DNA of 64,000 nucleotides from an uncultured Rhodospirillales bacterium (lineage in GTDB: Bacteria > Pseudomonadota > Alphaproteobacteria > Rhodospirillales > UBA2165), in assembly GCA_913055735.1 (NCBI GenBank), contig CAJXKD010000003.1, positions 6,561 through 70,560 of the forward strand, given 5' to 3'. Made by a program: the position numbers and the translations under genes. Every line of letters begins with the position of its first letter. The stretch's first letter is position 1. The notes below the pieces were generated by a model. The model ran no database searches, had not been told where the DNA came from, and saw only the letters and a list, made by a program, of their open reading frames with translations. Of the stretch, positions 1 through 44,002 are shown piece after piece.

Positions 1-780
1 GCGGTTCTGACGAACACCAAAGGGACGGCCGGGCCCAGTTCCGTCACCGGCACTACGGTCGTCTCGGAGGGCACGCCGTCGGTTCGAATTGGCACGTCCT
101 GGGTGGATGTGCGGCTTACATACACGACGAGCGTCCCCCAACCGGGTGAAATCACCCTGCTGATCACTTGCCCCAATGGGACAACGCAGCCGGCCAATCC
201 GGATAGGGTCGGCTCCGGCTATGTCGAATACCTGATCGACAATCCTACCCCAGGAACTTATACGTCATCTGTCGTGGTCGGTGCTGGACATGTAAGCAGC
301 ACTACGATCGGCGGCGTCGATCACAGCCAGCAAGCAAGCCTGACTTACACGGATCCGGGCGACGTGCGGGTAGGCGGTACCGTAACGGTACCTTGCCGGG
401 TCCTGGATGCCGACGGCTCACCGGTGGAACGGTGGAGCCTTTCGGGACATGTCGAGTCACCACTGATCGATCCCGATACGGCGCTTGCGCAAAACCGGGC
501 GGAGCTGGATGCGCTCGACCTTAAACCGGAGGAAGAAGACGGGGAAATCAGCGACAATCAACGGATGCTGACACTGGATCAAATACGTGGGCCGAACAAC
601 CCGGTGATCCCACGCGCCCAGCTTCCGCTGTCGATCTCACACGGCGAGGGCGAGAACCGTTTCAGCTTCACGCCGCAGACAAAGGGCACCCACATCGCGC
701 AATTTATGGCGACGGGACACGCGCCCAAGGCCGGACGCGATTTCAGCCTCGTGCGCGTCGCGACCATAGCAGCCGACTAA
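1..780 (+). CDS. hypothetical protein, 5'-partial (continues upstream of window)
   Basis: Frame 1 has no stop from nt 1 to the TAA at 778-780. The tracked ORF 103..780 (GTG start) is therefore probably only the tail of a longer gene. The sequence is Thr/Val/Gly-rich and strand-like (GTYTSSVVVGAGH, TVTVPCRVLDADGSPVERWSL), which suggests beta-sandwich repeats. It is the first gene of the co-directional cluster. No family recognised. Confidence 0.6.
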   Translation, partial: AVLTNTKGTAGPSSVTGTTVVSEGTPSVRIGTSWVDVRLTYTTSVPQPGEITLLITCPNGTTQPANPDRVGSGYVEYLIDNPTPGTYTSSVVVGAGHVSSTTIGGVDHSQQASLTYTDPGDVRVGGTVTVPCRVLDADGSPVERWSLSGHVESPLIDPDTALAQNRAELDALDLKPEEEDGEISDNQRMLTLDQIRGPNNPVIPRAQLPLSISHGEGENRFSFTPQTKGTHIAQFMATGHAPKAGRDFSLVRVATIAAD

Positions 781-805: not shown

Positions 806-1513
806 ATGATGGGAACGCCGTCAACCGGCCCGGCCGGCACGTTCACGCAGTACAGTACGACGAAGCTGTACTGCTATCCGGACGTGACGAGCCCACAGTT
901 GTTTTACTGGTGCACCGCGGAGACGCTGCCGTCGGAGCCGTTTTCCATCGCGCAGGCATGGGGCGGCGGCGCCTATGCGGGCTGGTTCCTGTTCGTCAGC
1001 GACCCCGCCGTCAATCTCGCCAATCCGAAAGCGGTCAGCCAGGCGATGGGGAATCTCGCCGAACCACCGGCGCAGAACAGCGGCGGGTTCCTGTGGCTGT
1101 ATGTCGACGGCGGGTCCGACCTCACTCTCCCGGTCTCCGGTGACGTATTGGCGGCGGGTGCGGTGTTCGGTACCTCGTCGGGACTGCATCAGCTCGAACT
1201 GAAGAAAGGTGCACCAATAATCTTGCAGGGCGACGGAACCAGCTTCGCGATCCTGTATCCGGAAGGGCTTCCCCAGGCAGACCCGCCGGAGAAAAAAGCG
1301 GCGTTCCCCATCGTACTTGATCTGCTGGGGTTGAATGCGGGCCGGTTCTCGTTCACCGGGTTCCAGCCCTACGGCGACATTTATTATCAGTATGATTTGG
1401 TCGTCGATCCGCTGGATCCGGCCGGGAGTTCCAGCACCTTCGCGCGCTACGCGATCCAACTCGTCCCCACCGGCGAGGCGTTTCCCGCCTATGCCATTCG
1501 GCCGCTGTCGTAG
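806..1513 (+). CDS. hypothetical protein (235 aa)
   Basis: The ATG is preceded by GGGAAGG about 9 nt upstream. It starts 25 nt after the previous stop and ends 11 nt before the next start. Codon style matches its neighbours. The N-terminus carries STGPAGT, a GPTG-like motif. No recognisable catalytic or sorting motif. Confidence 0.7.
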   Translation: MMGTPSTGPAGTFTQYSTTKLYCYPDVTSPQLFYWCTAETLPSEPFSIAQAWGGGAYAGWFLFVSDPAVNLANPKAVSQAMGNLAEPPAQNSGGFLWLYVDGGSDLTLPVSGDVLAAGAVFGTSSGLHQLELKKGAPIILQGDGTSFAILYPEGLPQADPPEKKAAFPIVLDLLGLNAGRFSFTGFQPYGDIYYQYDLVVDPLDPAGSSSTFARYAIQLVPTGEAFPAYAIRPLS

Positions 1514-1524
1514 GGAGGCGCGCG

Positions 1525-4440
1525 ATGGCAGGTAACAGAGACCGGCTCCCGCAAAACCCCGACGGCCCCCTGGCCGCTCCCCAGAGTGCCGGTCCCACGC
1601 CCTTCGGGGAGCTGTGCTACGTTCTGCAGGACGAAACCGGCGAACGTTGCCAGCCGGTTGCCTTTACCGGCGAGCCGTCCGCCACCGGACCGTTCCTGTT
1701 TTCGTCTCCGCTGCGTACGATCTACAACGATCCAGTCTATCTGGAACCGCAGGGCGACGCGGGTTCCCGGAATTGTGTGCGGCCGAGCCCGACGGGTCCC
1801 ATGTATTATGCCGCGCCGAGCGGGTCCTTCACCCTGGTGATATCGGGAGAGACGGCGGGGCAGGGGAAAACCCATTACTTGTTGTGCGGTCTGTCCGGTA
1901 CCGAAAATATTGCGTTTCAGACCGGTGACGTGCTCACCCTTTTTCCGTCCAAGCCGGCTTACGCCGGAACGTTTCCCGTGTTCGGCCCCACCGCCACACC
2001 TCCGGCGGCGGGCGAAGATTTGCTCAGCGACCGGTACACGACATCCTGGGCCGTCGTGACCCCCGGACCGAGCAGCACGTCCGGAAAGACCACCTATTAT
2101 GCGCAGCCGCAGCAGGCGCCGTTGTTCCTTCCCGGCGCAACGTCGGTGACCGGGGCGACGGGGGCGACGATCCTCGACCTGTACCCCGCACCCGCTGCCG
2201 AGTTCGGTCCCACCGCCGCGGCCGGGCCGACCGGCCTATCCTTTCCGCTGTTTCCTTATGCCGGTGTCGAGAAGGTTGGTCCGACGTCTATGACCGACGG
2301 CATCCCCGCGTTTACCGCCGAGGACATGGAGCTTTTCGAGCAGCAGGTTCTGGGACCGACACGGCGTGCCGCCATCGCCGCGGCGGGCGGGACAGGTCCT
2401 ATCGGCGCCGCCGACGATGCGGGCGCGACCCTGACCACGACGCCGCAGGGTTTTCTGACTACCGTCAGCGGCCTGCAATGGCAGAAGGTCGTGCTCGCCA
2501 GCAGCAGTCCCACCGGGCCGGAAAACCCGCCACCGCTCCAGTTCACCGACCTGACCAAAGACCTTCAGAACGCGCTGCAGACCAATCAGCTTTTTCTCGT
2601 CGTGACAAAGAAGGCGCCGCTCGGGGCATTTCAGGAAATTCTTAGCATCGAGGGATGGCCGTTCATCTTCAACGTTGGATCGCCGTCGGGCACGACGGAT
2701 TTCTCCAACGTTCTGGTTTTTAAGTTCCGGCCCGGTGCGCTCGTCGACCTCGTCGCCTCGCCGTCTGCCTGGACACAGGCTGAGACCTTCAACGAGACGG
2801 AAAACGTCGCCCCCGTTTCGTCCTGGTTGCAGGCTTACTTCAGCCAAGCGCTGAGTTGGGTGAACGAGTATCCCGACTTTCAGGATTTCGTCGACATCAT
2901 CACCAATCCCGGTTGGACCGGTGTCCTCGCCCTCAAGACGACCATCGACCTAGACGAATTCCCGGCACAGCTCAAGGGACTGCTCGGCGGCATCGACCTC
3001 AGCGAGTTCGACGCACACCATGTCGGAATAGAGGTGAACTTCGTCGACGTGCAAGATGGCCAACTCGTCGCCCCGCAGAGTTCGCTATTCGCCCTGATCA
3101 ACTATGTCAGCCCGGCTTATGCGCACGAACACAACCTGCCGACCTCGGCGGGTGCAACAGGTACGACGGGCGGCACGGATCCGACCGGGCCAACAGGCGC
3201 GACGGGGCCGGCTGCCTCCGGCCCCTACGATTTCAGTGTCGAAGTGCTGCAGGTCCTGTTCGAGAATTCGAAGATCAAGGATTTCTTCAGCCGTATAAAA
3301 TTGACGGCGTCGAGTTGGTTCGACGAGCAGGCGACGGTAGAGACCGACGCGTCCGGCGCGAGCCTGCCGTCCTACGACATCGAACTCGACGGCCATTACG
3401 AGGACCATCACGGCCATCCCAGCTACACCTTCGTCACGGCCAAGGGACAGCATTATACGTTCGGACTCGACAGCGCGATCCTGAACTATCTGGAGGTCGA
3501 GAAGGCGCAGTTCGTCACCGAGCGCAGCAAGACGGCGACGGGTCCAACCGCCACGACGGACAGCATTCAGACGGCCTTCAACTTCTGGGGCTATATGAAT
3601 TTCAAGCCGCTGCCGGGCTTCGACATCTTCTCGTTCGGCAGTCCCACCGGCGCGGTCCAGGACGGGCAGGGGCTCTATTTCTCGAACCTGTCCGTCGGCA
3701 TGGACTTCGAAGTGATCAGCGGCACGGGTCCGACCGCGGGACCGCCCACCGTGCAGGACCGCGCTTTCACCTTCGAACCTAGCGGCATGGCGTTCGACCC
3801 GTCGCTCAGCACCTTGCGGCCCGGCAGTCTCCTGTCCGGGTTCCCGATGGCGATCCAAGGACTTATTCCCGGCGTTTCGGGGGCCAGTGGGCCGGGGCCG
3901 CAGCCGTCGGCGATGGGCTACCGCGCGATCACCTTGCCGCCCGAGGCACAGGTCGGGCCGCTCGGGAGTCAATGGTACGCGCTGCAGCTCCATCTCCAAA
4001 TGGGCAGCATGGGGGCGCTGGCCGCGAAGGCCGGGTTCGTCGGCAACGTGCTCGCCGCGTGGAGCCCGTCGGCCCCGGCGCAGGCGATGCTGGGCATCAA
4101 GCTGCCCGGCGGCGACAATTCCGGCTTCTCGCTGGAAAACGTCCTCAAGCTCAAGATCGGCGACATCGCCTTTGTGCAGGAGGCGGCGCCCACGGGCCCG
4201 ACCGGCGCCACCGGGGCGACGGGAGCAACGGGGCCAACGGGACCGGCCGGCGGCGGCCGCTACATGCTGCAGATGAAACATCTGGGGCTCAGCCTCGTCG
4301 GCGTCACGTTCCCGCCGCACGGCAACACGGATCTGTATTTGTTCGGCCCGACCGCGACGGCCGCGTCGCTGCACCCAAGCGATCTCGGCTGGTACGGCGC
4401 CTATGTCGGTCCCACCGCCCCCGGCGGGCCGACGGGTTGA
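1525..4440 (+). CDS. giant hypothetical protein (971 aa) with scattered GPT/GPTG motifs and short Gly-X-Thr collagen-like runs
   Basis: Long uninterrupted ORF with a GGGAGG RBS 7 nt upstream. I counted at least 15 GPT-containing motifs, plus runs such as GPTGATGATGATGPTGPAGGG, and it ends ...GPTAPGGPTG*. No N-terminal signal peptide, TM segment or true P-loop seen. No family recognised. Confidence 0.85.
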   Translation: MAGNRDRLPQNPDGPLAAPQSAGPTPFGELCYVLQDETGERCQPVAFTGEPSATGPFLFSSPLRTIYNDPVYLEPQGDAGSRNCVRPSPTGPMYYAAPSGSFTLVISGETAGQGKTHYLLCGLSGTENIAFQTGDVLTLFPSKPAYAGTFPVFGPTATPPAAGEDLLSDRYTTSWAVVTPGPSSTSGKTTYYAQPQQAPLFLPGATSVTGATGATILDLYPAPAAEFGPTAAAGPTGLSFPLFPYAGVEKVGPTSMTDGIPAFTAEDMELFEQQVLGPTRRAAIAAAGGTGPIGAADDAGATLTTTPQGFLTTVSGLQWQKVVLASSSPTGPENPPPLQFTDLTKDLQNALQTNQLFLVVTKKAPLGAFQEILSIEGWPFIFNVGSPSGTTDFSNVLVFKFRPGALVDLVASPSAWTQAETFNETENVAPVSSWLQAYFSQALSWVNEYPDFQDFVDIITNPGWTGVLALKTTIDLDEFPAQLKGLLGGIDLSEFDAHHVGIEVNFVDVQDGQLVAPQSSLFALINYVSPAYAHEHNLPTSAGATGTTGGTDPTGPTGATGPAASGPYDFSVEVLQVLFENSKIKDFFSRIKLTASSWFDEQATVETDASGASLPSYDIELDGHYEDHHGHPSYTFVTAKGQHYTFGLDSAILNYLEVEKAQFVTERSKTATGPTATTDSIQTAFNFWGYMNFKPLPGFDIFSFGSPTGAVQDGQGLYFSNLSVGMDFEVISGTGPTAGPPTVQDRAFTFEPSGMAFDPSLSTLRPGSLLSGFPMAIQGLIPGVSGASGPGPQPSAMGYRAITLPPEAQVGPLGSQWYALQLHLQMGSMGALAAKAGFVGNVLAAWSPSAPAQAMLGIKLPGGDNSGFSLENVLKLKIGDIAFVQEAAPTGPTGATGATGATGPTGPAGGGRYMLQMKHLGLSLVGVTFPPHGNTDLYLFGPTATAASLHPSDLGWYGAYVGPTAPGGPTG
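3151..3213 (+). repeat. in-frame Gly-X-Thr triplet run (GATGTTGGTDPTGPTGATGPA) inside the 971-aa gene
   Basis: Direct reading of codons ggt gca aca ggt acg acg ggc ggc acg gat ccg acc ggg cca aca ggc gcg acg ggg ccg gct. The G-X-Y periodicity has one Asp interruption. Confidence 0.8.
4195..4257 (+). repeat. in-frame collagen-like Gly-X-Y run (GPT GAT GAT GAT GPT GPA GGG) inside the 971-aa gene
   Basis: Seven consecutive G-X-Y triplets read directly from the codons. Thr occupies Y in five of them. Confidence 0.85.
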
Positions 4441-4454
4441 GAGGAGAGGATGGT

Positions 4455-5846
4455 ATGAGACCGCTTACCTATTTAGCAGTCGATCCACCGGCAACGCTTC
4501 CGCGGCAGGGGAACTCTGGCCTTCGCGTTGACCTCTTGACGATCTTGGCGCCGACCGGGGCTACGGTCGGCGGATACAAACAATACACGTTGCCCAATTA
4601 CGTACAGATACTTGGTTTTCTGCAGAAGATAGTCGTCACGAACGAGGGCGGCGATAGCCCGGCCGGGAATCCAATTACGGTGGACGGTGCTAAGGATATT
4701 CTTACGGAGATGACGACCACGCAGAACAATCTGGGGCTGTCTGCGATTTACGGCGCGTTCCGCCGCAACCTGATGTCGGCGTACGGCCAGTTCTGCTCAT
4801 ATTGCGAACTGCCGGTCGGATCGAGCGGGCTGGCCGTCGAACACTTGCTTGCCAAATCGGTTTTTCCGGATATCGCGTGTAGTCCCGGCAACCTGCTTCT
4901 GGCTTGCCCAATGTGCAATTCTTTCAAGGGCACGGCGCCGACGCCGACCGGAGACGACGCTTATGACTGGCCCGTCGACTGGGCCAACTCCGAACCAGCG
5001 ATTCCCAATCCCCCGGTAACGTGGGACCAATACGGACAGATCAAAAACGTTCTCTACAATGCCTATATGTGGCCGCTCTACCAAGCAGCCTACAAAAATT
5101 TCAATCGAGCGCTGATGTATCAGGAGGCTGCGGGCGGCGCGTTCCAGAAGGCTGCAGGTTCTTTCGATTTTGCCGGTGTATCGATTGTTTCGACGGCAGG
5201 CGGCGTAATCAAAGCGGTGCTGCCAGAGGTGGCGCCTGGCCCTGTGAGTTTTACCGTCCAGGTCTGGGTGACAAGCGGAATGGCGGATTTTATTGGCCCC
5301 GACTCGGTTCTCACAAGCGATCCCACATTTCCTGCCCCACCCGCAGGCGTAGATCCCAACAGCAAGCAAATGGTTCCAGCATACACCGATACCAACGGGC
5401 AGGGCATGCTGAACCTCAATAACGACGACGCCAGTCAATCCTATACCGACCGGCGTATGTACAACCGCACCCTGGCCTGGTTTGCCGCCCTTGGTGCCCT
5501 GGACCGCTTGAACGATGCGATGGAAATCGGCGAACCCGCCTACAATTTAGTGATGCAGGAAGTCGCAAGCAGTGCGACGACGTCCGGCTTCTTCTCGATC
5601 TGGTTCGCGGTTTTCAACGCGAATGCGCCGACTGCGCCCGGCGACTTCGGACCTGTTGCCAACCCGCCGCCCGACGACCCAGGCAACATTCCGGATGCCA
5701 CCGTCGATTTTGTCAACGGCACGGTCAAACACGCGTACCCGCCGCCGCCACCGCCTCCACCGGCGCCACCAGCGGGTGTTGGTTTCCCCGGCACCAACGT
5801 CATTAATACGATTCCCGCGCCACCGGCGCCGCCGGAGGAGGAATAG
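4455..5846 (+). CDS. HNH endonuclease-domain protein, paralogue 1 (463 aa), Pro-rich C-terminus
   Basis: ATG at 4455 (MRPLTYL) has a GAGGAGAGG RBS. The tracked ORF 3972..5846 extends upstream only by overlapping the previous gene out of frame. HNH/zinc-finger motif: FCSYCELPVGSSGLAVEHLLAK...NLLLACPMCNSFKG. The C-terminus is PPPPPPPPAPPAGVGFPGTNVINTIPAPPAPPEEE. Confidence 0.85.
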   Translation: MRPLTYLAVDPPATLPRQGNSGLRVDLLTILAPTGATVGGYKQYTLPNYVQILGFLQKIVVTNEGGDSPAGNPITVDGAKDILTEMTTTQNNLGLSAIYGAFRRNLMSAYGQFCSYCELPVGSSGLAVEHLLAKSVFPDIACSPGNLLLACPMCNSFKGTAPTPTGDDAYDWPVDWANSEPAIPNPPVTWDQYGQIKNVLYNAYMWPLYQAAYKNFNRALMYQEAAGGAFQKAAGSFDFAGVSIVSTAGGVIKAVLPEVAPGPVSFTVQVWVTSGMADFIGPDSVLTSDPTFPAPPAGVDPNSKQMVPAYTDTNGQGMLNLNNDDASQSYTDRRMYNRTLAWFAALGALDRLNDAMEIGEPAYNLVMQEVASSATTSGFFSIWFAVFNANAPTAPGDFGPVANPPPDDPGNIPDATVDFVNGTVKHAYPPPPPPPPAPPAGVGFPGTNVINTIPAPPAPPEEE

Positions 5847-5915
5847 AGGTATGAAACGATGCAATCTTCAGACACCGCTTGCGGTGGGCCGACAGGTTGA
5901 GAGGAGGCCATTGTC

Positions 5916-7331
5916 ATGAGGCCGATCACGAAAATAGCCCCCACGTCGGCTCAGTATCCGGGTCCTGCGAATTATGGAGTGAATCTTGGCAATCCGATTG
6001 TCACTTTTCTTATAAATTCTGGCGTCGTGCATTCGACGACACCGACTTCAATCACCTTTGCACAATACAATGCTGGTCTTGTTAAAATTCAGAACCGATT
6101 GGTAATGCGTAAGGGGAATAATCCTACTACATCTGAAGCTGGTGATCTTAAGGTTGATCTAACCACTAAAAGTGGTGGCGTTTTCGCACTCTCCTCAATT
6201 TATGGGACGGCGAGATTGCATCTGATATCCAATCTGGGCGCATTTTGCTCTTTTTGTGAAATGCCGGTTGGGGACAGTAACTTGGCAGTTGAGCACATGA
6301 TTCCCAAAGATAAATTTTTGATCGAAGCCACTGACTACGACAACTTTCTGCTTTGCTGTCCGACTTGCAATTCCTGTAAGGAAGAATTTCCATGCACTGA
6401 CAACTATAGCATACCTATTGGATGGGCGGACACAGCAATACCGCCATGTCCTGCCGGTACACTTCCCTTAAGTACCCGGACACTCAACAAATTTCCGAGC
6501 ACCGTCGGTTCGTATCAGCAACTAACATCGGTCCTCCGTAATGCCTACATGTGGCCTATATACCCTGGTGCATACAGAAATTTTCACCACGAAATTCAGT
6601 CGAACCCTAATTCTTTACCACTAACACACACACCGGCCCAGAAGACCACTTGGTTAGCTGGTTTTGTACCGGTTACGGCGGCGCCTGATCCCGCCAATGA
6701 CCGGATAACGGCCGTACAAGATGGACAGGTGACTGCAATCGTCGGCGGAGGGACAACCGCCGAGATTGTGCGTGTCAGGGTGAGTGGTGTGGGGGGAACG
6801 ATAGCCGCGAATTCAGTGCCCGCACCCAATCCCGCCGCGGTAGCTGGATACCCCTCAGCCGGTGCGGCTCCAAACAGTCATGCGATGGTTGAGAAAAGAA
6901 ATTCTACGACCGGGGATGGCATGCTCAATCTCAATAAGATGGACATCGATTGGAGTTTCTCTGATCGGCGGGTCGTCAACCGCACAAAGGCATGGTTCGC
7001 GGCTTTGTCCGCGTTTAACCGGCTGAACATCGCGCAGGGCGTCACCGGTGCCGCCAGTGCGGCCTACCAACTTATGTTACAGGAGGTTTGCAGTACCGCC
7101 GGAGCGATGGGTTTCTTCTCGACATGGGTCAGGGCTTTTGACGGTCAGGCGCCCGCGACGCCCGGTCCAACCGGTCCAATCCCTGGCGGGGCGCCGCCGG
7201 GTCCACCACCGCCACCCAACGTTGTCCCAAATGCTACGGTCGATTTCGTCATGCGATCCACCGGGAACGTTACTCCGGCACCCGCGGTTGTCGAATTTCC
7301 CGGCACCAATATCGCCAACACCATTCCCTGA
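5916..7331 (+). CDS. HNH endonuclease-domain protein, paralogue 2 (471 aa), mosaic GC content
   Basis: Starts MRPITKI with a GAGGAGG RBS. HNH motif: FCSFCEMPVGDSNLAVEHMIPK...NFLLCCPTCNSCKE. It shares blocks with paralogue 1: NAYMWP(L/I)Y, G(Q/D)GMLNLN, AWFAAL, VDFV...FPGTN(V/I)xNTIP. The 5' third is visibly AT-richer than the rest of the operon. Confidence 0.85.
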   Translation: MRPITKIAPTSAQYPGPANYGVNLGNPIVTFLINSGVVHSTTPTSITFAQYNAGLVKIQNRLVMRKGNNPTTSEAGDLKVDLTTKSGGVFALSSIYGTARLHLISNLGAFCSFCEMPVGDSNLAVEHMIPKDKFLIEATDYDNFLLCCPTCNSCKEEFPCTDNYSIPIGWADTAIPPCPAGTLPLSTRTLNKFPSTVGSYQQLTSVLRNAYMWPIYPGAYRNFHHEIQSNPNSLPLTHTPAQKTTWLAGFVPVTAAPDPANDRITAVQDGQVTAIVGGGTTAEIVRVRVSGVGGTIAANSVPAPNPAAVAGYPSAGAAPNSHAMVEKRNSTTGDGMLNLNKMDIDWSFSDRRVVNRTKAWFAALSAFNRLNIAQGVTGAASAAYQLMLQEVCSTAGAMGFFSTWVRAFDGQAPATPGPTGPIPGGAPPGPPPPPNVVPNATVDFVMRSTGNVTPAPAVVEFPGTNIANTIP

Positions 7332-7346
7332 ACGCGGAGAGAGGCA

Positions 7347-8207
7347 ATGAGACCATTGGACAAACAGATGCCACCCGTCTGGGAGGCCTATCCCGACGGA
7401 CAACGCGTGCCAACCGGTGTTGCGAATAACCACTTGCTCGACGCGGTCGGGGAATATTGCTCCTACTGCGAGATGCGGCTCGGCGGCGGGGCGATCCTGC
7501 ATCACAAGCTGCAGCGAGAGATGCCCGAATCCGTGCCGAAGGAGGATTGGCGGCACCTGTTGCTGATCTGCTACGACTGCCGCCGCCACATGACGGAAGA
7601 CGCGCTCACGCCGGACCGGCTCGATGATTACCTCTGGCCGGACGCCCACCCGTCCTTCAGCCTGCACGCGGACAGCCCGTTCAGGTACCGCCTGAAACCG
7701 GTTCCCTATGTCATCACCGACGAGGACGGCAGCCGGGAAGAACATGACGAGGAATTCGTTTTCGTCGAGGTCAATCCGGAGGCGGGCGCGGAGCTTCGGC
7801 GCAAGGCGGCCAACACCATTGAGCTGTTCAAGCTGAACAGCCCCTATTACGACGATTCCCGCCACATCCTGGAGGTGCCGCGCAGCGATCACCTGCAGGT
7901 GCTGTGCAACCGGCTGCAACAGCGCACGCAGGCGTGGACACGGGCACAGGCGTCGGTTTCCCGGGTCCGGCAAATGCGGGAGCTTCCCGAGGTGCGGGAG
8001 AACCCGGATCTGGAGCAACTCCTTCATCAGCAGATCACTCACACCGCGCACGGTAAGGGCAACTGGTCTGTGTGGATGACTGTGTTCTGGCAGGAATTGG
8101 AGGAAAAGGATGTGCTCGAACGCATCTTCCTTGAAATGCCGGAGGACAATCCCGGCTTCCACTTTGCCGGTACGCATTTCGGCCAACTGCGCTGGGAGGC
8201 GCTATGA
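7347..8207 (+). CDS. HNH endonuclease-domain protein, paralogue 3 (286 aa, short form)
   Basis: Starts MRPLDKQ. Motif: YCSYCEMRLGGGAILHHKL...HLLLICYDCRRHM (CxxC...HH...CxxC). It lacks the Pro-rich tail. Its stop overlaps the next start (ATGA at 8204-8207). Confidence 0.8.
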   Translation: MRPLDKQMPPVWEAYPDGQRVPTGVANNHLLDAVGEYCSYCEMRLGGGAILHHKLQREMPESVPKEDWRHLLLICYDCRRHMTEDALTPDRLDDYLWPDAHPSFSLHADSPFRYRLKPVPYVITDEDGSREEHDEEFVFVEVNPEAGAELRRKAANTIELFKLNSPYYDDSRHILEVPRSDHLQVLCNRLQQRTQAWTRAQASVSRVRQMRELPEVRENPDLEQLLHQQITHTAHGKGNWSVWMTVFWQELEEKDVLERIFLEMPEDNPGFHFAGTHFGQLRWEAL

Positions 8208-11200
8208 CCGGAAACAGTTCGCTCCTACAACAGCTCTACGACGCGCTGTTCCCGTCGGGTTGGGAGCCGGCGCCGGTCACGCTGGACAGCCCGAATGTGC
8301 CGGCCGCGATTACAGGTCTGTTCAAGTCCATGCTGGGCGGCAGTGCCGACAGCTTGACCGTCGACGGTATCGCCGCGAAACCGCTTGCGCCGGGCGACAG
8401 CCTCGTGTTCTCCGGGACGACCGTGTCCCTCTTCGCCGGCAACTCGGTCAGTGTCACGGCGACCTTCACCGAAGTTACCTCGCCTACGCCCGCGCTGGTC
8501 CTTAAGCTCGTAATGAGTCCATCGGGCAGCGTCACGCTCGACGGCCTGCTCACGGCCTACGGGATCATCCCGTCGTCGCTGACCGACGGCTATACATATC
8601 CGTCCATGGCCCTGCCCGGTGTCACATTTACATTCGACTCGCAGGCCCCATCGCTTGCTGTCGTCACGGGCGGAACGGCCAATCCGCTGCTTTCCGATTT
8701 TCCGTCGATCAAAAGCATCCTTCCCGCCGACTTGACGGCCGGCATCGACATCACCGTCGATCCATCGACGGGGTTGCGCAATTTCGCCGTCGAACTCAGC
8801 GGCAACATCACGCTGGGATCGACGCACACCGTGTCGGTCGGCATACCGCTTGGGCTTTCGACCGCGTGGCAGTTGCAGGTCCGCCCTGCGAGTGGCGGCG
8901 GGACCGGGTTCGATCTTTCGAAACTCGACATCGGTCCGTTCTCGGACGCGATCGGCGACATAACGGGCCTCATGCCGTCTTCAGTGACGAAAAAGATCCA
9001 GCTGCAGTATCTCGGCATCACCTTCTTTCTGAAACCGTCGCCTTCCATCTATTCCGCATCGATCATCGTTGCGACCACCGAACCCTGGAACATCGTTACC
9101 AATGTGTTTTCGGCGACGAGTCTCGCGTTATATGTCAACGTGCAGAAGAAATTCTCGGGTTCGGGCTACGACTATCACATCAAGTTCCAGGGCCAGGCGC
9201 ATATCGGCGCGCCGGGGGATCAGGGCTTCAACGTTCAAGTCAAAGCGACGCTCTCGCCCGGCGCCGATACGATTACCTTCACCGCTCGGGACATTACCGT
9301 CGAAAAGATCTGGAACACGCTGGAAACGGCTTTCGACGTCGACATAGACATGTTCCCGCCGGGCGTGTCGTCGCTCGCAACCGCGCTAGTGCTCGAATAT
9401 ATGCAGGTGGACATGACGGTATCCGGCGGCAGCGGCACGTTGCAGGGTACGGCTTTCACCGTGACCTATGAAGACCAGCTCAAACCGCCCTGGTTCCACA
9501 ACGTTTATCTGGACAGCGGTGCTAGCGTTTCCATGGCGCTTCAGCGCAATAATACGACAAAAAAACAGGAACTCGCCCGCGCGTCGGTGGAGGGCACAAT
9601 GGTGTTCGGGCCGGTCACGGTCGGCGTGGCCCTGACGCGGCCATCGGCATCCGTGGGGTGGGGACTTTCCGTCACGTCGGAAAAGGTTGTTCTGCCCTCG
9701 ATTTCGGACCTCGCGTCGTTCGCCGGTGGGGGCACGCTGGAAAACCTGTTGCCCGCGGGCGTGCGCAATACGGGCAATTTCGTCATTTTCGATCTCAATA
9801 TCGATGTGCATCTCGCCCGGCCGTATCTTCAGAACCTGTCTTTCACCCTGTCCTATTCCGATACCAGCCCGCCCTGGGTGCTGATCCCGCGCTATTTCTC
9901 CGTCGACGATGTCACCGTAATCGCCCATATCACCCCGCAGCCGTCGGGTACCGATGTTTTCACCGGTTATGTCAGCGGCATCGTAACCATCGCGGGCGTC
10001 GGCGTATCGTTGGCTGCGCAGAAGGATGCGGCAACCGACCCCTGGACCTTTACGGGAAAGACAATGAGCTCGATAACGGTCGAGCTTCAGGACATCGCGA
10101 CGGATTTCGGCATCCCGTCTGCGCTCGTCAGCGCGCTGCCTGCCAGCCTGACCGTCGAAAGTCTCGATGTCACCGCGGTGCCGTCGACCGGCGCGTTTTC
10201 TACCGATGTCACGATCACCATGGGAACAGACTGGCCGTTCGAGAGTCTTCAGCTCAGCGACGTCAGTTTCGATATTTCCCGCACAAAGGAACATGTCGAT
10301 GCGCAGATCAGTGGAAACATCGTATTGGGCTCGGGGCAGGGGGCGCCGACGCTTGACCTCACGGCCGACTACGACAGTACCGGAGGATGGACGTTCAGCG
10401 GTGGCCTGGCAGCCGCCGACAGCCTCAAGGCGAGTGATCTCTTAAGCGAGTTTTTGCCCGACCTGCCGTTTCCGGACTTGACTGTTAACCGGCTGAATTT
10501 CACCGGACAGCCGTCCACAAAGAGTTACACCTTCTCGCTCGCCTGCGACTGGAGCATCGATCTGGAGGGGTTGGACCTCGGAGATCTGGATGTGACGGCC
10601 TCGGCAAACCTCGTCTACGACGCCAAAAATAGTCCCGCGTATACCGGTAGTACGATCGAGGGAACGTTAGACTTCCACGGTCTCAGCCTGTCCGCCGGGC
10701 TGACGATCGAATCGGCGACCGGAAAAAATTATACGTTCGCCTTTCTGGGCGTGACGGGCGGCTACAGTCCCTCCGCGAACACCATCACCTTCTCGCTGGC
10801 GAACGAATCCGTCGGTGACATGGTCACGCTTCTGGTCAAAGCGGCGACCGGCCAGAACATCACCTTGCCGGAGCCATGGAGCGCGTTAAACGAGGTCGAG
10901 CTCAACGATTTCGAGCTTGTCTTCAAGGCCCCGCCGAGCGGCAATAAGACGGTGGAGCTTTCCTGCGATATCGGCCTCAACCTCGAAATTGCGAAAATCG
11001 AATCTTTCGGATTGCTCTACGACTGCACGACACGCAACGTGAAGGTTCAGATGACCGGTACGTTCCTCGGGTTGCCGATGGAGAGCAATCCGGCCTTCCA
11101 GAAATGGAACGCGAACGACCCCAGCACCGCGCCGTCGGTTCCCGGTAAGGGAAAGAATTATTTCGAGCTCAACCTGCTCGGCCTTGGCCAGCACATTGAA

Positions 11201-12802
11201 TTGTCACCGTCGCCCGATACGATGCAGCAGGCGTTGGCAGAATTGCGGGGGCTGTTCAACGAGCCCGGCGTGCCGCAAGACCTCACCTACAGTCAGCAAG
11301 CCGGATGGCTGATCACGACACAGTTCACTGTTCTTGACATGATCGAGATCGGCATCCTGTTCGACGATCCGAACATGTACGGGTTGTTGATCACGGTCAG
11401 CAAAGGCAATTTTCAAGGACTCGAATTCGAGGTTCTCTACAAGAGGATCAACGCGAACGTCGGTGTGTTCTATGTCGAGTTCTCTCTGCCCAACTATCTT
11501 CGCCATCTGCAATTCGGCGCAGTTTCGGTCACGCTGCCGGATCTCGGCGTGTGGATCTATACCAACGGCGGCTTCAAGATCGACGTCGGGTTCCCCTACA
11601 ACGATAACTTTTCCCAATCCGGCGGGGCACAGGTGTTCCCGTTCGTGGGGGCGGGCGGCTTCTATTTCGGTGTTCTCCACGGCGAGACCGATCCGCAACT
11701 CCCCACGATCACGGCCCCCCAGGGCGGAAACTTCAATCCGGTAATCGAGTTCGGTATCGGACTGCAACTCGGGCTCGGAAAGGGAATTAACAGGGGACCG
11801 GTGACCGCCGAGATCAAGATCGCGGTCGAGGGCATCCTCGAGGGCACGCTCGCTCCATATCATCCGTACAACCCGGACATCCATGATTCCGGCACAGAAA
11901 ACTTCTATTATTACCTGCAGGCTCAGATCGGTATCGTCGGCGTGGTCCGCGGCGCCGTGAATCTTGCGATAATCACCGCCAGCCTGAGCCTCGTTGCCAA
12001 GGTGATCGCAACCGCGATCATTGAGGCGCACAGGGCGATAGAGTTGGGCCTCACGGCCAGCGCCACGATCGAGGTGACGGTCACGATCAATCTCTGGCTG
12101 TTTTCGATCCACATTCATCTGCACTTCGATTTCTCGGTCAGTGAGCATTTCACGCTCGGCCATAACACGCTCGGTCCGTGGGATGCCGGTTATGTCGGTG
12201 CTGCGCCGCGTTGGAGCATCACAGCGTTCCAGGCAACGCTGCCGCCGCCAGCGCCGATGAACTGGCAGGCGCCCGCGCCCGTGGTGCCGCCGCAGTCCAT
12301 GGACCTCTATTTCGTTCCGAAGTTCACCGTCACGGCGGCCACGGCGTGGGAGGTACAGATGGAAGCGATGCTGCTTGTCGATGCGCCGAGCGCTAGCAAC
12401 CCCACGGCGGACACGTCGTTCAATCGCCTTTCCGAAGCACTTCTTCTCTGGACCTTCAACGCCCTGATCGATCCGACGAAGCCGCTCGACGATATCCTAG
12501 ATCAGGAAGTCACGTTGGACGGCATACTTGGTCTGCAGGCCTATATCGAAGCGCAGGATGACGGCGTGCCCGTGGAGACGATCACGCCCGACGATCTCGA
12601 GTTCTTCTTCAAGAACTATATGGACGTCGAAATCCATTCGGGCGCTTCGATGGTACCGCCGGCTGGCGGCACCTTTAGCGCCTTCCCGATGCTGCCATAT
12701 CTCGAAATGGCGACGCCTGCAAAAACGGTCGATTTCAGCCAGCCATCCTGCGACGGAAACTACTTCCGGCAGATTCGTGCGGCGTTCGAGGGCTGGGCAT
12801 GA
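8204..12802 (+). CDS. giant hypothetical protein (1532 aa)
   Basis: Uninterrupted 4.6-kb ORF with a GGGAGG RBS 5 nt upstream. It has ATGA start/stop overlaps with both neighbours. Ser/Thr/Gly/Val-rich strand-like sequence. A Gly/aromatic-rich segment (GGFKIDVGFPYNDNF...FPFVGAGGFYFGV) is followed by a long hydrophobic stretch (AVNLAIITASLSLVAKVIATAIIEA). No signal peptide or P-loop. No family recognised. Confidence 0.85.
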   Translation: MTGNSSLLQQLYDALFPSGWEPAPVTLDSPNVPAAITGLFKSMLGGSADSLTVDGIAAKPLAPGDSLVFSGTTVSLFAGNSVSVTATFTEVTSPTPALVLKLVMSPSGSVTLDGLLTAYGIIPSSLTDGYTYPSMALPGVTFTFDSQAPSLAVVTGGTANPLLSDFPSIKSILPADLTAGIDITVDPSTGLRNFAVELSGNITLGSTHTVSVGIPLGLSTAWQLQVRPASGGGTGFDLSKLDIGPFSDAIGDITGLMPSSVTKKIQLQYLGITFFLKPSPSIYSASIIVATTEPWNIVTNVFSATSLALYVNVQKKFSGSGYDYHIKFQGQAHIGAPGDQGFNVQVKATLSPGADTITFTARDITVEKIWNTLETAFDVDIDMFPPGVSSLATALVLEYMQVDMTVSGGSGTLQGTAFTVTYEDQLKPPWFHNVYLDSGASVSMALQRNNTTKKQELARASVEGTMVFGPVTVGVALTRPSASVGWGLSVTSEKVVLPSISDLASFAGGGTLENLLPAGVRNTGNFVIFDLNIDVHLARPYLQNLSFTLSYSDTSPPWVLIPRYFSVDDVTVIAHITPQPSGTDVFTGYVSGIVTIAGVGVSLAAQKDAATDPWTFTGKTMSSITVELQDIATDFGIPSALVSALPASLTVESLDVTAVPSTGAFSTDVTITMGTDWPFESLQLSDVSFDISRTKEHVDAQISGNIVLGSGQGAPTLDLTADYDSTGGWTFSGGLAAADSLKASDLLSEFLPDLPFPDLTVNRLNFTGQPSTKSYTFSLACDWSIDLEGLDLGDLDVTASANLVYDAKNSPAYTGSTIEGTLDFHGLSLSAGLTIESATGKNYTFAFLGVTGGYSPSANTITFSLANESVGDMVTLLVKAATGQNITLPEPWSALNEVELNDFELVFKAPPSGNKTVELSCDIGLNLEIAKIESFGLLYDCTTRNVKVQMTGTFLGLPMESNPAFQKWNANDPSTAPSVPGKGKNYFELNLLGLGQHIELSPSPDTMQQALAELRGLFNEPGVPQDLTYSQQAGWLITTQFTVLDMIEIGILFDDPNMYGLLITVSKGNFQGLEFEVLYKRINANVGVFYVEFSLPNYLRHLQFGAVSVTLPDLGVWIYTNGGFKIDVGFPYNDNFSQSGGAQVFPFVGAGGFYFGVLHGETDPQLPTITAPQGGNFNPVIEFGIGLQLGLGKGINRGPVTAEIKIAVEGILEGTLAPYHPYNPDIHDSGTENFYYYLQAQIGIVGVVRGAVNLAIITASLSLVAKVIATAIIEAHRAIELGLTASATIEVTVTINLWLFSIHIHLHFDFSVSEHFTLGHNTLGPWDAGYVGAAPRWSITAFQATLPPPAPMNWQAPAPVVPPQSMDLYFVPKFTVTAATAWEVQMEAMLLVDAPSASNPTADTSFNRLSEALLLWTFNALIDPTKPLDDILDQEVTLDGILGLQAYIEAQDDGVPVETITPDDLEFFFKNYMDVEIHSGASMVPPAGGTFSAFPMLPYLEMATPAKTVDFSQPSCDGNYFRQIRAAFEGWA

Positions 12803-15800
12803 CCAGCCTCACACCTCCACCCCCGCCTCCCGGCGCAACGGGAATTACCGCCGGCGCCACTGGGCCGCTGAACGCGTTTATGCTGATCGACTACATGAAC
12901 CTGATCATCAAGGAGGGCGTGAACGACGCGGTTTCGGAATTCCGTGCGACGACCGTTGTTCCCGGCACAACCGGACCGAAAAGCCTCTCGCAACTCGCCG
13001 CCGCCTATCCCCCGAATAGCCAAGCGCCGACTGGGGTTTCGCGTATCGTTCAGATTGCACAGGCGAATCAGCAGATCCCGCTCGCTACGGGAACGACGAT
13101 GACGTTCTCCGACGTTTCCTTCGTTCCGTCCCCGGGGGCGACGCTGGGCGGAATTGCACAACGGTTCGACGTTGCCGCCACCGCGCTTGCCAGCGTGGAA
13201 AACAATCCTCAGCTCAGCTATCAGACGTTGCCGTCCGGCGTGACCGCGGTTCAGCTTGCGGGACCAACCGGCGAGACGGCCGTCGGCGTGACCGGCGGCG
13301 CGTCATTCCAGGATGTCGCACGGCGGTACGGCATCACAGGCCCGACGGCAATCGACTCCGCGCTGATCTGGCCCAACCTGGATGTGGTGGATCGCTTGCT
13401 AGTGCCCGGACAGCCGGTACACATCCCGACCTTCTCGCAGGCTGTGACCGGACCAGTTTCTCTGGCTTCGCTCGCAGCGTACTACAACTTGTCGCTGGAT
13501 GCGGTTGCGACACAGAACGCAGATACGCCGATTTTCGGTGAAACCGCCTCGGTAGCGGTCCCCCAGGCGCAAACGATGACGGTCGGACATCTGATCAGTC
13601 GTCTGATGGCAGATGGGTTTGACCAGAAGATCGCCGGCCTGGCGGGACGTGCGCTGCTGCATGGTCTTCGCGTTCCCTATCCCGGCCAGAGGGCTGGTCC
13701 GCGGGTGGGACTGTTTGAAGTCACCGGTCAGCAAGTGGGCGTGTCCGGGTTGACGGCAGACAGCTTGGTGACGCTGGGCTACCCCGGGCCGACCGCGCCG
13801 GCGTGGCTTCATTTTGCGGCGCTGTCGCCGACCGGGGTGACAGCGCACGGAAGCAGCCTTCCCATCGGCGTTACGGGTGCGACCGGGACGACCGGCGCGA
13901 CAGGTATAACCGGAACGACCGGTGCCACGGGCCCTGCGCCGCATCCACATGTCGCCTTTCCGGTCGGTGTAACCGGCATGGCCTATATCGAGCGCCTCGC
14001 CGGTGCCACGGCGTATAGTCCGACCGGCAGTTTTGTAGAGTTGCAGCCGTATCATATCTATCAGCGAAGCTTCACGTTACCGCACAGCATCACATGGAAC
14101 GTGCCACAAAATCCACCCGGCCCTACCGGGATCGTTCCTGTTGGTCCGACCGGTTCGTATGGGAGCCCTGCCGCGACTGGCGATACCGGTGCGTCTCCGA
14201 TGGGGACCTATTTCATTCGGGCCTTCCCCAGCAAGCTTCGGGACCTGCTTCAGACGGGGGCAACCGGTTCTAAGACGACGCCTTTCTCGGTGATTAAGCG
14301 CGATAATCCGGCACCTGGTGCGACGGCGGCGGTGGAGCAGGTCACTCCATACGCATTCACAACAATGATCCAGGTGAATGTTTCGCAGGTGCCGCAGGAG
14401 AACGGAACCAGCGAATTCGTGTACGCCCTTCAGGGAACCAGCGAGGCCGATAAATCGCTGCTTGCGACGCTTCTCGCACAACCGATGGCGCCGCAGGCCA
14501 TCTTCCTACTCTATCCCGCGCGGGGCGCGCAGAAAGGCCAGAAAAACGCTCCCGTCGCGCTTAGTTCCGACCAGGAGCCAACGGCCTTCATTTTCCACAC
14601 CAACCCGACGACAACCTCCGTGCCGCATGGCGGCGAGATCTGGTCTGCAAACGCGCGTTTGCTGGCCGGGGGCGTAGTCAGCAGCCAAGCCGTCAATTTC
14701 CTTCAGCAGATATGGGAGGTTGACGAGGTGAACCAGGGTGGGTTCTACCTCTACTATCGTACGGCGGAGGGGAAGGGGCTGCCATCCTACCTGTTCAGCC
14801 AGAAGCCGAACGCGACGGTGACGGTCCTCATGCCTTATGGCGTTGCGTCGGAAAACACACCCTCGGGCCTCGGATACCTGATTCCGCGTTATGTGAACAG
14901 CATCGTGCTCGACACCGCCGCGAGCGCAAAAAATCAGGGCTTGTATGTTGAGCCCGTCGGGCCCGCGTCGGGATTTGATGCGGCGCTTCAGGTCAAGACA
15001 CCGACCATACATCCCGGCACGGTGGCATTTGAGATCAGCCGTCCAAACCCGAACTACGCGCCTGGTCCCACGGTGACGACAGCGCACGAACTCGATGAAC
15101 TCTACAGCATCGTCGAGGCGAACATTCCGGCACAGGCGGGTTGGGCGGCTAGCCGGCCCGGTCTGCCGGTTGGTCCGCGCAATCCCAGTCCCGGCATCAC
15201 CGCGGGACCCTCGCCGAGTTTTACCTATGACATCGGTTTCCCGATATCGCACCTTGCCATCGGACCGCCCGGCGTCACCGGTCCGACGGGCACCACCGGG
15301 CCGAGTGCGCTTAACAACCCGTATGCAGGTGTCGGCGAGACCCTCACCGTCCAGTTCGATCTGTTCGACATTTTTGGAAATACCCTGCGACCATCGGACG
15401 GCCCCGCTTGGCTTTCGACAACGACGCTGCCCGGCTACACCGATTATCTGGTCGGAATAGACAATTGGCCGCAGGTGGGCCGAAGCTATTCCGTCGACAG
15501 CGCGCAGAACATTCAGATCAACCTCACGTTTAATGCCAACTATTTCTATGAAATCTATGAGGCGGACAAGGGAACGCAGCCGGACTACGTCTCGGCCGTG
15601 CTTGATGCGGCGGAGACAGTGCAGCAAACGTTCGAAAAAATATACTACCAGCTCAGTCGTCCGGATGTTTCCGCGACCATCGTTACGAGCTTTGATCCGG
15701 ATAGCAGTAACGATGTGACGGTGTCGCTTCGCGATTTCGTGACGGCCTGCTGGGTCAAAGTCTGCGGGATCGTCGAGACGCTCCGGAAGAAGAGAGCCCT

Positions 15801-20548: not shown

Positions 20549-20776
20549 TAGCCATAGCTTGCCTTCCAGTCCCATCAAAACACTGTTTTCTAGCAGTAGG
20601 GGTAATTTCGACACGAAATTGTTCGCGCCGCTACTACCGTACGTTTGTCGGACATTTTTCATTACAATTTCGTCATAACCCGCAAAAAATGCCCTTCATG
20701 AGTTCACAGCGTCACGAATCCATGGCTAAGTTCCAAATATTCTTTCTGTGTTGGTCGGAAATATTTGGAGATATGC

Positions 20777-43956: not shown

Positions 43957-44002
43957 TCGAACCGCAAGGCGCAAAGGACTTTTTGAAAGACGGAGCACAT
44001 GA

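Follow-up and report, generated by a model that had tools for sequence, protein, structure and literature searches.

PtuB-like HNH genes joined to giant repeat-protein genes, with no adjacent PtuA ATPase, in a Rhodospirillales locus and in related loci across phyla

Introduction

So far, PtuB, the nuclease of Septu and of retron Ec78, is known solely as one half of a two-part machine, whose other half, an ATPase, is indispensable for its control. The protein combines an HNH domain, which bears a four-cysteine zinc finger and a catalytic histidine (PMC12673091), with a C-terminal domain of three helices. Two PtuA subunits grip this domain between their C-terminal tails, and this is how PtuB docks in both Septu and retron Ec78 (PMC12673091, PMC12819146). 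Defence and toxicity need both the ATPase and the nuclease (PMC12819146), and the targets that have been reported for PtuB are DNA and tRNA-Tyr (PMC12673091, PMC12819146). Here, we describe PtuB-like genes that stand next to a different kind of partner. They lie in a stretch of 64,000 nucleotides (nt), hereafter the window, from an uncultured Rhodospirillales bacterium of the UBA2165 lineage (contig CAJXKD010000003.1, positions 6,561 to 70,560 of the forward strand), where three consecutive open reading frames on the + strand, within 4455-8207, encode the zinc-finger HNH proteins that we call H1, H2 and H3 and are directly followed by genes for giant proteins. A first-pass annotation of this DNA had read the three as tandem nuclease effectors resembling TIGR02646/PtuB, with no partner ATPase, and had suggested, as one of two options, that the neighbouring giants might do the sensing or scaffolding for them.

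Homology and descent of the three HNH proteins

H1 (4455-5846, +, 463 amino acids, or aa), H2 (5916-7331, +, 471 aa) and H3 (7347-8207, +, 286 aa) all start with MRP, each behind a GAGAGG-type ribosome-binding site. Every motif quoted in the first-pass annotation was found, that is, CSYCE..VEH..CPMCNSFKG and a run of eight prolines in H1, CSFCE..VEH..CPTCNSCKE in H2, CSYCE..LHH..CYDCRRHM in H3, and NAYMWPxY, GMLNLN, AWFAAL and VDFV..FPGTN(V/I)xNTIP common to H1 and H2. The four-cysteine zinc finger of a beta-beta-alpha-Me HNH core is present in each protein (C114/C117/C151/C154 in H1, C111/C114/C148/C151 in H2 and C38/C41/C75/C78 in H3). BLASTP aligns H1 with H2 end to end at 36% identity (E-value, or E, 8e-68), and H3 matches both of them in the HNH core (E 2e-8 with H1, 3e-7 with H2) as well as in a second, C-terminal block, RTxAW..GxxSxW..VF (E 2e-7 and 3e-5, respectively). 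The claim of three tandem paralogues is thus confirmed, with a homology that goes far beyond chance.

That H1, H2 and H3 derive from PtuB, the zinc-finger HNH nuclease of Septu, is well supported by sequence comparisons of several kinds. The PADLOC PtuB model PDLC00315, which comes without a curated cut-off, matches all three at E 1e-26 to 1e-29 and 92-101 bits (E 1.6e-29 for H3), and the Pfam HNH cut-off (21.4 bits) is passed by H2 only (27.2 bits). When a profile of the family is compared with PDB sequences, chains of PtuB and of the retron Ec78 HNH protein come out on top (E ~2e-7, HNH core only), and H3 can be aligned over its whole length with proteins of 220-240 aa that are named 'TIGR02646 family' at source. 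Finally, an hhalign comparison of the profile of long forms, the type to which H1 and H2 belong, with a profile of PtuA-linked PtuB proteins gave a probability of 100% (E 4e-44) over PtuB positions 19-198 of 230, so that the HNH domain and the helical C-terminal domain are both covered. Together, the PADLOC, PDB and hhalign results bear out the TIGR02646/PtuB-type resemblance noted in the first-pass annotation.

The same comparisons put the ends of these proteins in a different light. Since canonical PtuB relatives start with MRP(I/V)xRG and end in ...FPGT..C..CF, the MRP start and the FPGTN end of H1-H3 are inherited and do not form a new tag. The FPGTNxxNTIP sequence, which had been singled out as a special tag of the first two paralogues, is the end of the PtuB C-terminal domain; it has a counterpart in H3 (as FAGTH), and FPGT is also found in canonical PtuBs. 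What survives of this idea is the docking role, which is plausible by homology alone because the PtuB C-terminal domain is the PtuA-docking module, although not as the property of a distinct tag. The description of H3 as a short form has to be turned around as well: H3 has the ancestral PtuB length, and it is H1 and H2 that are expanded, by an N-terminal extension of ~95 aa and an internal insert of ~130 aa. We nevertheless keep 'long' and 'short' as labels for the two types of gene.

A conserved unit without PtuA

Among GTDB species, each represented by one genome, a scan found 80 loci, which are of two classes. In ~60 of them (from cyanobacteria, myxobacteria, Bacteroidota and others), a single ~230-aa HNH gene lies directly 3' of a ~440-aa gene, and 56 of these ~60 relatives are preceded by an ATPase with GDNGTGKT, a Walker A motif, near residue 30. 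This ~440-aa Walker-A gene followed by a ~230-aa HNH gene is the canonical PtuA-PtuB arrangement, and its prevalence agrees with the earlier statement that PtuB-type HNH proteins normally stand beside an ATPase. Fifteen GTDB loci differ, in that they consist of a long HNH gene (~380-820 aa), a short HNH gene (~256-320 aa) and a giant gene (1100 to >2800 aa). They come from Mucilaginibacter, Blastocatellia (two), Longimicrobium, Asticcacaulis, Frankia (three), Jatrophihabitans, Acidobacteriaceae, Thermoanaerobaculia, Pyrinomonadaceae, Terriglobia, Schlesneria and Competibacteraceae. Three metagenome loci (L001, L005 and L006) display the same order of long HNH, short HNH and giant, which, in our numbering of loci, is found in L001, L005, L006, L008-L017, L027, L038, L047-L049 and Ralstonia. 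The pair plus giant is thereby represented by ~20 loci from at least 7 phyla, among them Pseudomonadota, Acidobacteriota, Bacteroidota, Actinomycetota, Gemmatimonadota and Planctomycetota.

A PtuA-like gene is adjacent to the HNH pair in none of the 15 GTDB loci of this type, and the sole Walker-A neighbour among the ATPase-less loci is RecF, which belongs to a dnaA-dnaN-recF cluster (L048). In the window, the first-pass remark that the operon has no P-loop protein holds for every product, no Walker A motif being present in the 235-aa, 971-aa, 1532-aa and 1856-aa proteins or the 629-aa glycosyltransferase (GT), nor in the GT2, 748-aa and von Willebrand factor A (VWA) proteins encoded upstream. 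Moreover, a PtuA profile built from 56 sequences and compared by hhalign with the N-terminal regions of the giants, the 971-aa family and the extensions of the long forms gave probabilities of <1%. It is well supported, then, that the PtuA ATPase is truly absent from the window system and that a long HNH gene, a short one and a giant make up the conserved unit. The link between HNH and giant genes that had been proposed for the window is upheld by the recurrence of this order across phyla; the proposal of three paralogues as the unit is not, since one long and one short gene are what is conserved. In L001, L008, L014, L017 and L027, the long HNH gene has a 971-like gene directly in front of it. 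VWA, collagen-like and GT genes are limited to the window and the L001 lineage, whereas the HNH pair and the giant are conserved across phyla. In the Competibacteraceae locus (L048, 1535-4930), the triad comes directly after dnaA-dnaN-recF, and a gene for an nSTAND1 NTPase with WD40 repeats sits just upstream of dnaA.

The triad is also a feature of Ralstonia. On the megaplasmid of Ralstonia solanacearum OE1-1 (L091, 14001-24013), it encodes proteins of 370, 289 and 2657 aa, which are annotated as 'HNH endonuclease', 'hypothetical protein' and 'hemagglutinin' (RSOE_07340-07350); L089 and L092 are further copies, and GMI1000 carries the triad too, on its megaplasmid at ~2.011-2.021 Mb. It is found in 133 Ralstonia megaplasmid records, versus 137 that carry the flanking resistance-nodulation-division (RND) transporter gene. 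A literature search combining Ralstonia, HNH and hemagglutinin found no paper on it. Upstream of the Ralstonia triad is a divergent type III effector gene, and downstream are four co-oriented hypothetical genes. By eye, two of the four seem to have a conserved N-terminal block in common in the Po82 copy (L089), and a putative ADP-ribosyltransferase-type ExE motif can be seen, again by eye, in the second of the two.

The giant proteins

The giant of the window is a 1532-aa protein (8204..12802, +). All giants have in common a colinear region of ~530 aa (residues 190-720 of the 1532-aa protein), which is made of four to five tandem repeats of ~135 aa, as revealed by hhalign of segments shifted by 135 aa (probability 98.7%, E 1.6e-16). 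In the window protein, the repeats occupy residues 197-318, 325-464, 462-592 and 587-699 (residues 197-699 corresponding to nt 8792-10300), and the C-terminal half is lineage-specific. The family is small and its members are large: a phmmer search of 1.84 billion cluster representatives yielded only 133 relatives, almost all of 1200-4300 aa, and a homologue search with the full-length giant as query returned the query itself only. No Pfam, NCBIfam, PADLOC or PDB match was obtained for the 1532-aa giant, the 971-aa family or the 1856-aa protein, and the giant repeat profile showed no relation, by hhalign, to the 3091-aa, 1856-aa, 971-aa and 235-aa proteins of the window.

Beyond the repeats, the C-termini of the giants vary and include DUF6603, fn3 plus LamG, fn3 plus a beta-propeller, LysM, collagen, FBA, Laminin_B and Hint modules. 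DUF6603 (PF20248) is part of the L048 giant (E 9e-150), and four out of 22 sampled members of the family have it. An hhalign comparison between the L048 DUF6603 region and the C-terminal domain of the window giant gave a probability of 0.5%, and a literature search on DUF6603 retrieved no paper that mentions it.

Active sites of the long and short proteins

Every long form retains CxxCE..(E)H..N..CxxCNxxK, and H1 and H2 accordingly possess the catalytic histidine (H130 and H127, respectively) with its preceding acidic residue and the two asparagines. This strict retention in all long forms suggests that nuclease activity is under selection. The site of H3 reads LHH..RHLLL..CRRH, which means that the glutamate and both asparagines are replaced while the histidine and all four cysteines are kept. 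H3 is not alone in this, for the short forms fall into two groups, one with an intact active site (ten loci) and one with a decayed site, which has eight members (window H3, L001, L008, L014, L027, L047, L048 and Ralstonia). In the decayed group, the acidic residue before the histidine, the structural asparagine and the helix asparagine are all replaced (both asparagines in 8/8), the histidine is lost in 3/8 and one zinc ligand is missing in Ralstonia. What this group does retain is MRP, the first CxxCE knuckle, LxPD, A..TI..F.LN, R...RT..W..A, G.WS.W and F.GT. In a neighbour-joining tree without bootstrap, the long forms group together, the intact short forms fall with canonical PtuBs and the decayed short forms make a clade of their own. 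In L011, L012 and L038, both HNH genes are long-like (~360-420 aa) and cluster in the long clade, which indicates that the 'short' partner has been re-expanded or replaced at least once.

It is well supported by these alignments that the predicted active sites of H1 and H2 are intact and that H3 falls in a clade whose site has decayed; in this clade, selection acts on the scaffold and the C-terminal domain and not on catalysis. H3 is probably a pseudo-nuclease or adaptor, although it may have residual activity owing to its histidine and four cysteines. Given the decay across its clade, H3 is best left out of the count of nuclease effectors; of the three that had been proposed, only H1 and H2 stand.

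Duplication and divergence of H1 and H2

The closest relative of the window locus, L001, has one long and one short HNH gene, which makes the third HNH gene of the window lineage-specific. The trace of its origin is a 34-nt direct repeat with 85% identity (4413..4446 and 5873..5906, both +), whose copies are spaced by 1460 nt, that is, by one gene unit. The first copy corresponds to the last ~30 nt of the 971-aa gene plus the ribosome-binding site, and the second is a relic of this junction in the 70-base-pair (bp) spacer before H2; the repeat is absent from L001. That H1 and H2 arose by local tandem duplication of a long gene is well supported. H2 is the extra, slightly more diverged copy: H1 is closer than H2 to the single long gene of L001 (41% identity for H1), and global identities of H2 to H1, the L001 long gene and the protein P0002 are 42-45%, versus 46-48% among those three. 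H2 also differs in composition, with a GC content of 0.53 and a GC content at third codon positions (GC3) of 0.52, as against a GC3 of 0.67-0.79 for H1, H3 and the 971-aa and 1532-aa genes, which may reflect foreign origin by recombination or relaxed codon adaptation.

Compared with L001 by BLASTP, the long HNH proteins are the least conserved members of the operon (36-41% identity), followed by the 235-aa protein (44%), the 1532-aa and 1856-aa proteins (52%), H3 (64%) and the 971-aa protein (67%), which fits rapid evolution of the long forms. An H3 orthologue of 64% identity (P0011) exists in Oceanibaculum nanhaiense. The non-coding junction relic (85%) is better conserved than the duplicated coding sequence (~36-42% protein identity), which might be due to gene conversion, to a role of the relic in translation initiation or to very fast evolution of the proteins.

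The operon and its surroundings

H1-H3 are part of a tightly packed operon, with intergenic gaps of 5-70 bp, whose upstream part is seen in two metagenome contigs with identical genes (L002 and L003). The full order is GT2 (626 aa), 748-aa protein, 438-aa VWA protein, 235-aa protein, 971-aa protein, H1, H2, H3, 1532-aa giant, 1856-aa giant and GT4+GT2. Within the window, the operon begins with the 3' part of the VWA-domain gene (103..780, +; 100% identical to residues 214-438 of L002 3549-4865, Pfam VWA), continues with the genes for the 235-aa protein (806..1513, +) and the 971-aa protein (1525..4440, +), neither of which belongs to a known family (homologues of the latter in L001, L008, L014, L017 and L027 have BLASTP E of 0 to 3e-64), and, after the HNH genes, with those for the two giants. 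The H3 stop codon overlaps the start codon of the 1532-aa giant (ATGA), and the stop of the latter overlaps the start of the 1856-aa second giant (12799..18369, +), so that they are translationally coupled. L001 has a conserved counterpart of the second giant, and in L027 part of it is fused into the giant. A fused GT4 + GT2 glycosyltransferase of 629 aa (18374..20263, +) is the last gene.

No signal peptide or clear membrane segment was found in the operon products, the 1532-aa giant having one hydrophobic stretch, and Pfam detected no reverse transcriptase domain in them (no search was made for non-coding RNA). The 748-aa protein (L002 1223-3469; 754 aa in the second metagenome copy, L003 1205-3469) consists of ~270 aa of collagen-like GPT/GMT triplets, a VWA domain and a C-terminal domain, the last of which is common to this protein and the 438-aa VWA protein. 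The 971-aa and 1856-aa proteins contain short collagen-like G-x-T runs as well. PHROG 'tail fiber' matches were rejected as compositional because they are confined to collagen-like G-x-y triplets. A sequencing-run search yielded five runs only, all of them DNA metagenomes from air and marine samples.

Further downstream, a gene at 20765-30040 (+) encodes a 3091-aa protein with long internal repeats, a Ricin-B lectin plus Tectonin C-terminus and, by eye, an N-terminal hydrophobic leader that resembles a secretion signal; a TPR-secretin gene (30101-32008, -) is convergent with it. The window also encodes a SoxB-like 5'-nucleotidase, a SoxC-like molybdopterin oxidoreductase, an O-antigen ligase (Wzy_C) and a Wzz/GNVR/ParA-type chain-length regulator (42265-45325, 48142-49539, 54821-57103). 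This gene content suggests a proteobacterial host that produces exopolysaccharide (EPS) and, to judge from the sox genes and the Oceanibaculum orthologue, may oxidise sulfur.

What might the locus do?

PtuA is gone from this lineage, and the PtuB gene is kept instead as a pair with the giant directly behind it. Because the docking domain is retained, the HNH genes and the giant are strict partners with coupled translation and the C-termini of the giants are exchangeable, we propose that the giant has replaced PtuA. According to this proposal, (i) the PtuB-type C-terminal domains would dock the HNH proteins onto the giant, with the 971-aa protein as a possible additional docking site in the sub-clade of the window, (ii) the giant would serve as scaffold and sensor and hold H1 and H2 silent until a trigger arrives, (iii) H3 would be a non-catalytic adaptor or brake and (iv) H1 and H2, once released or activated, would cut nucleic acid, which could be DNA or tRNA since both have been reported for PtuB. 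A conflict or defence role seems most likely, and docking, regulation and substrate are, like this role, what we infer from homology and gene order. On the full mechanistic statement, namely that the giant replaces PtuA as the platform controlling the nucleases in a conflict or defence system, we find ourselves evenly divided. Its extension across phyla, as a widespread and hitherto undescribed ATPase-independent conflict system in which a giant with an exchangeable recognition module is the sensor and scaffold and H3 a built-in regulator, is put forward tentatively and may well prove wrong.

Several points weigh against the proposal. On the side of the nucleases, H1-H3 score 16.6-25.9 bits with the NCBIfam models TIGR02646 and PtuB (NF041761), which lies far below the cut-offs of 52.15 and 150 bits, respectively, and AlphaFold2 models computed from 8-sequence alignments have a mean predicted local distance difference test (pLDDT) score of 48 for H3 and 41 for H2, leaving the fold unconfirmed (a Foldseek search with the low-confidence H3 model gave noise only). 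On the side of the giants, Pfam and PDB searches revealed no recognisable fold or enzymatic domain, and the fn3, LamG, LysM and collagen modules of related giants are typical of extracellular proteins. Since PtuAB requires its ATPase (PMC12819146), an ATPase-less version would need a different control logic. The genomic context is not that of a defence island, comprising as it does glycosyltransferases, VWA and collagen-like proteins, a lectin giant, a secretin and sox and EPS genes. Finally, the Ralstonia counts (133 records versus 137) mean that the locus behaves there as a core gene and not as an accessory defence gene.

Alternatively, the operon might build a large glycosylated, collagen-like, lectin-bearing structure such as a surface fibre, a matrix or an adhesin, and the PtuB-derived proteins might serve this structure and not immunity. 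They might then be assembly factors, anchors or processors of nucleic acid (e.g. extracellular DNA) or zinc-finger adaptors. Glycosyltransferases do flank the operon, the ~270-aa GPT/GMT triplet protein and two VWA proteins are encoded upstream, related giants have fn3, LamG, LysM, collagen and Laminin_B modules, the neighbours include the secreted Ricin/Tectonin giant, the secretin and EPS genes, and, in Ralstonia, the locus is near-universal in megaplasmid records and its giant is annotated 'hemagglutinin'. However, the 235-aa, 971-aa, H1-H3 and 1856-aa products have no signal peptide or transmembrane segment (and the 1532-aa product only its hydrophobic stretch), the VWA, collagen-like and GT genes are restricted to the window and the L001 lineage, the catalytic residues of the long forms are strictly kept, and the characterised relatives are all defence effectors. 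We consider this structural role, the main alternative to our proposal, unlikely, though worth keeping in view.

It is improbable that H1 and H2 are toxic to competitors and the decayed H3 their inhibitor, in a toxin-immunity or polymorphic nuclease set. A dead paralogue does adjoin live nucleases, the long forms are the fastest-diverging members of the operon, with one of them duplicated, and one related giant has a Hint domain. Yet the active site of the short paralogue is intact in about half of the related loci, so that it can be no general antitoxin, the HNH domain is not C-terminal on a carrier protein, no secretion-system, Rhs, PAAR or two-partner secretion (TPS) features were found, and gene order and content are conserved and not cassette-like. 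Polymorphic nuclease cargo, which the first-pass annotation had offered as an option, finds no support here: these HNH genes are free-standing, conserved core genes with no secretion or immunity signature.

More improbable still is an ordinary Septu whose ATPase went unrecognised because it is highly diverged, hidden in the giant or encoded elsewhere. Clearly PtuB-like proteins that retain the PtuA-docking C-terminal domain would be expected of such a system, but there is no Walker A motif in the operon products, the 56-sequence PtuA profile stays at <1% against the giants, the 971-aa family and the long-form extensions, and an adjacent PtuA is found in 0/15 independent loci. That selfish homing HNH endonucleases were inserted by chance between large genes is hardly credible, for, despite weak PHROG HNH endonuclease matches on the core (E about 1e-6 to 1e-7), the genes keep strict synteny with the giant in phylum after phylum, their translation is coupled, they are related over their full length to PtuB and not to homing endonucleases, and the phage genome collection has no relative of H3 and IMG/VR a single match, on the HNH core only.

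Whichever way the question is settled, there is in many phyla a clade in which a PtuB nuclease occurs as a live and a decayed copy, wired to an unannotated family of giant, non-ATPase proteins. As a defence system, it would add a control logic not seen before and giant sensors of a new class; otherwise, it would be a case of a defence effector taken over by some other structure of the cell. Since the Ralstonia solanacearum species complex, which is genetically tractable, has the triad, a direct test is possible, and the HNH genes offer a starting point for the function of ~130 clusters of orphan giants, some with DUF6603.

Comparison with known systems

In polymorphic toxins, the nuclease domain forms the C-terminus of a secreted carrier, and a cognate immunity gene lies downstream. 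The HNH proteins of the window stand alone and lack a signal peptide, and the downstream gene encodes a giant and not a small immunity protein. Pseudo-enzyme paralogues that act as adaptors or regulators of active nucleases offer a parallel, since H3 likewise keeps fold and partner-binding motifs while its catalytic residues decay; we found no specific precedent in the PtuB family, and an adaptor role for H3 is put forward on this general likeness. As for the giants, the L048 protein with DUF6603 shares its N-terminal repeats with the 1532-aa protein of the window and follows an equivalent HNH pair, but the window giant has no PF20248 match even at E<=10.

The closest systems are Septu and the type I-A retrons (Ec78/Eco7). 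Type I-A retrons consist of a reverse transcriptase, a non-coding RNA and PtuAB, and the window operon has no reverse transcriptase domain by Pfam. Like the PtuB of these systems, H1-H3 start with MRP, H1 and H2 have the four-cysteine zinc-finger HNH core CxxCE..EH..N..CxxCNxxK intact, the window proteins have the helical C-terminal domain with DRRxxNRxxAW, GxWSVWxxVF and FPGT, and H3 is of canonical length and alignable end to end. Unlike PtuB, which has ~230 aa and is encoded by a single gene in Septu, the proteins described here come as a long and short pair, the long forms with their ~95-aa extension and ~130-aa insert and H3 with the glutamate and both asparagines of its active site lost. 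Above all, Septu has the ABC-type ATPase PtuA beside PtuB, whereas the HNH genes of the window have no adjacent PtuA and are instead hard-linked to giant repeat proteins. In short, the locus presents a known nuclease family in a new genomic and architectural form, together with a family of giants that is uncharacterised.

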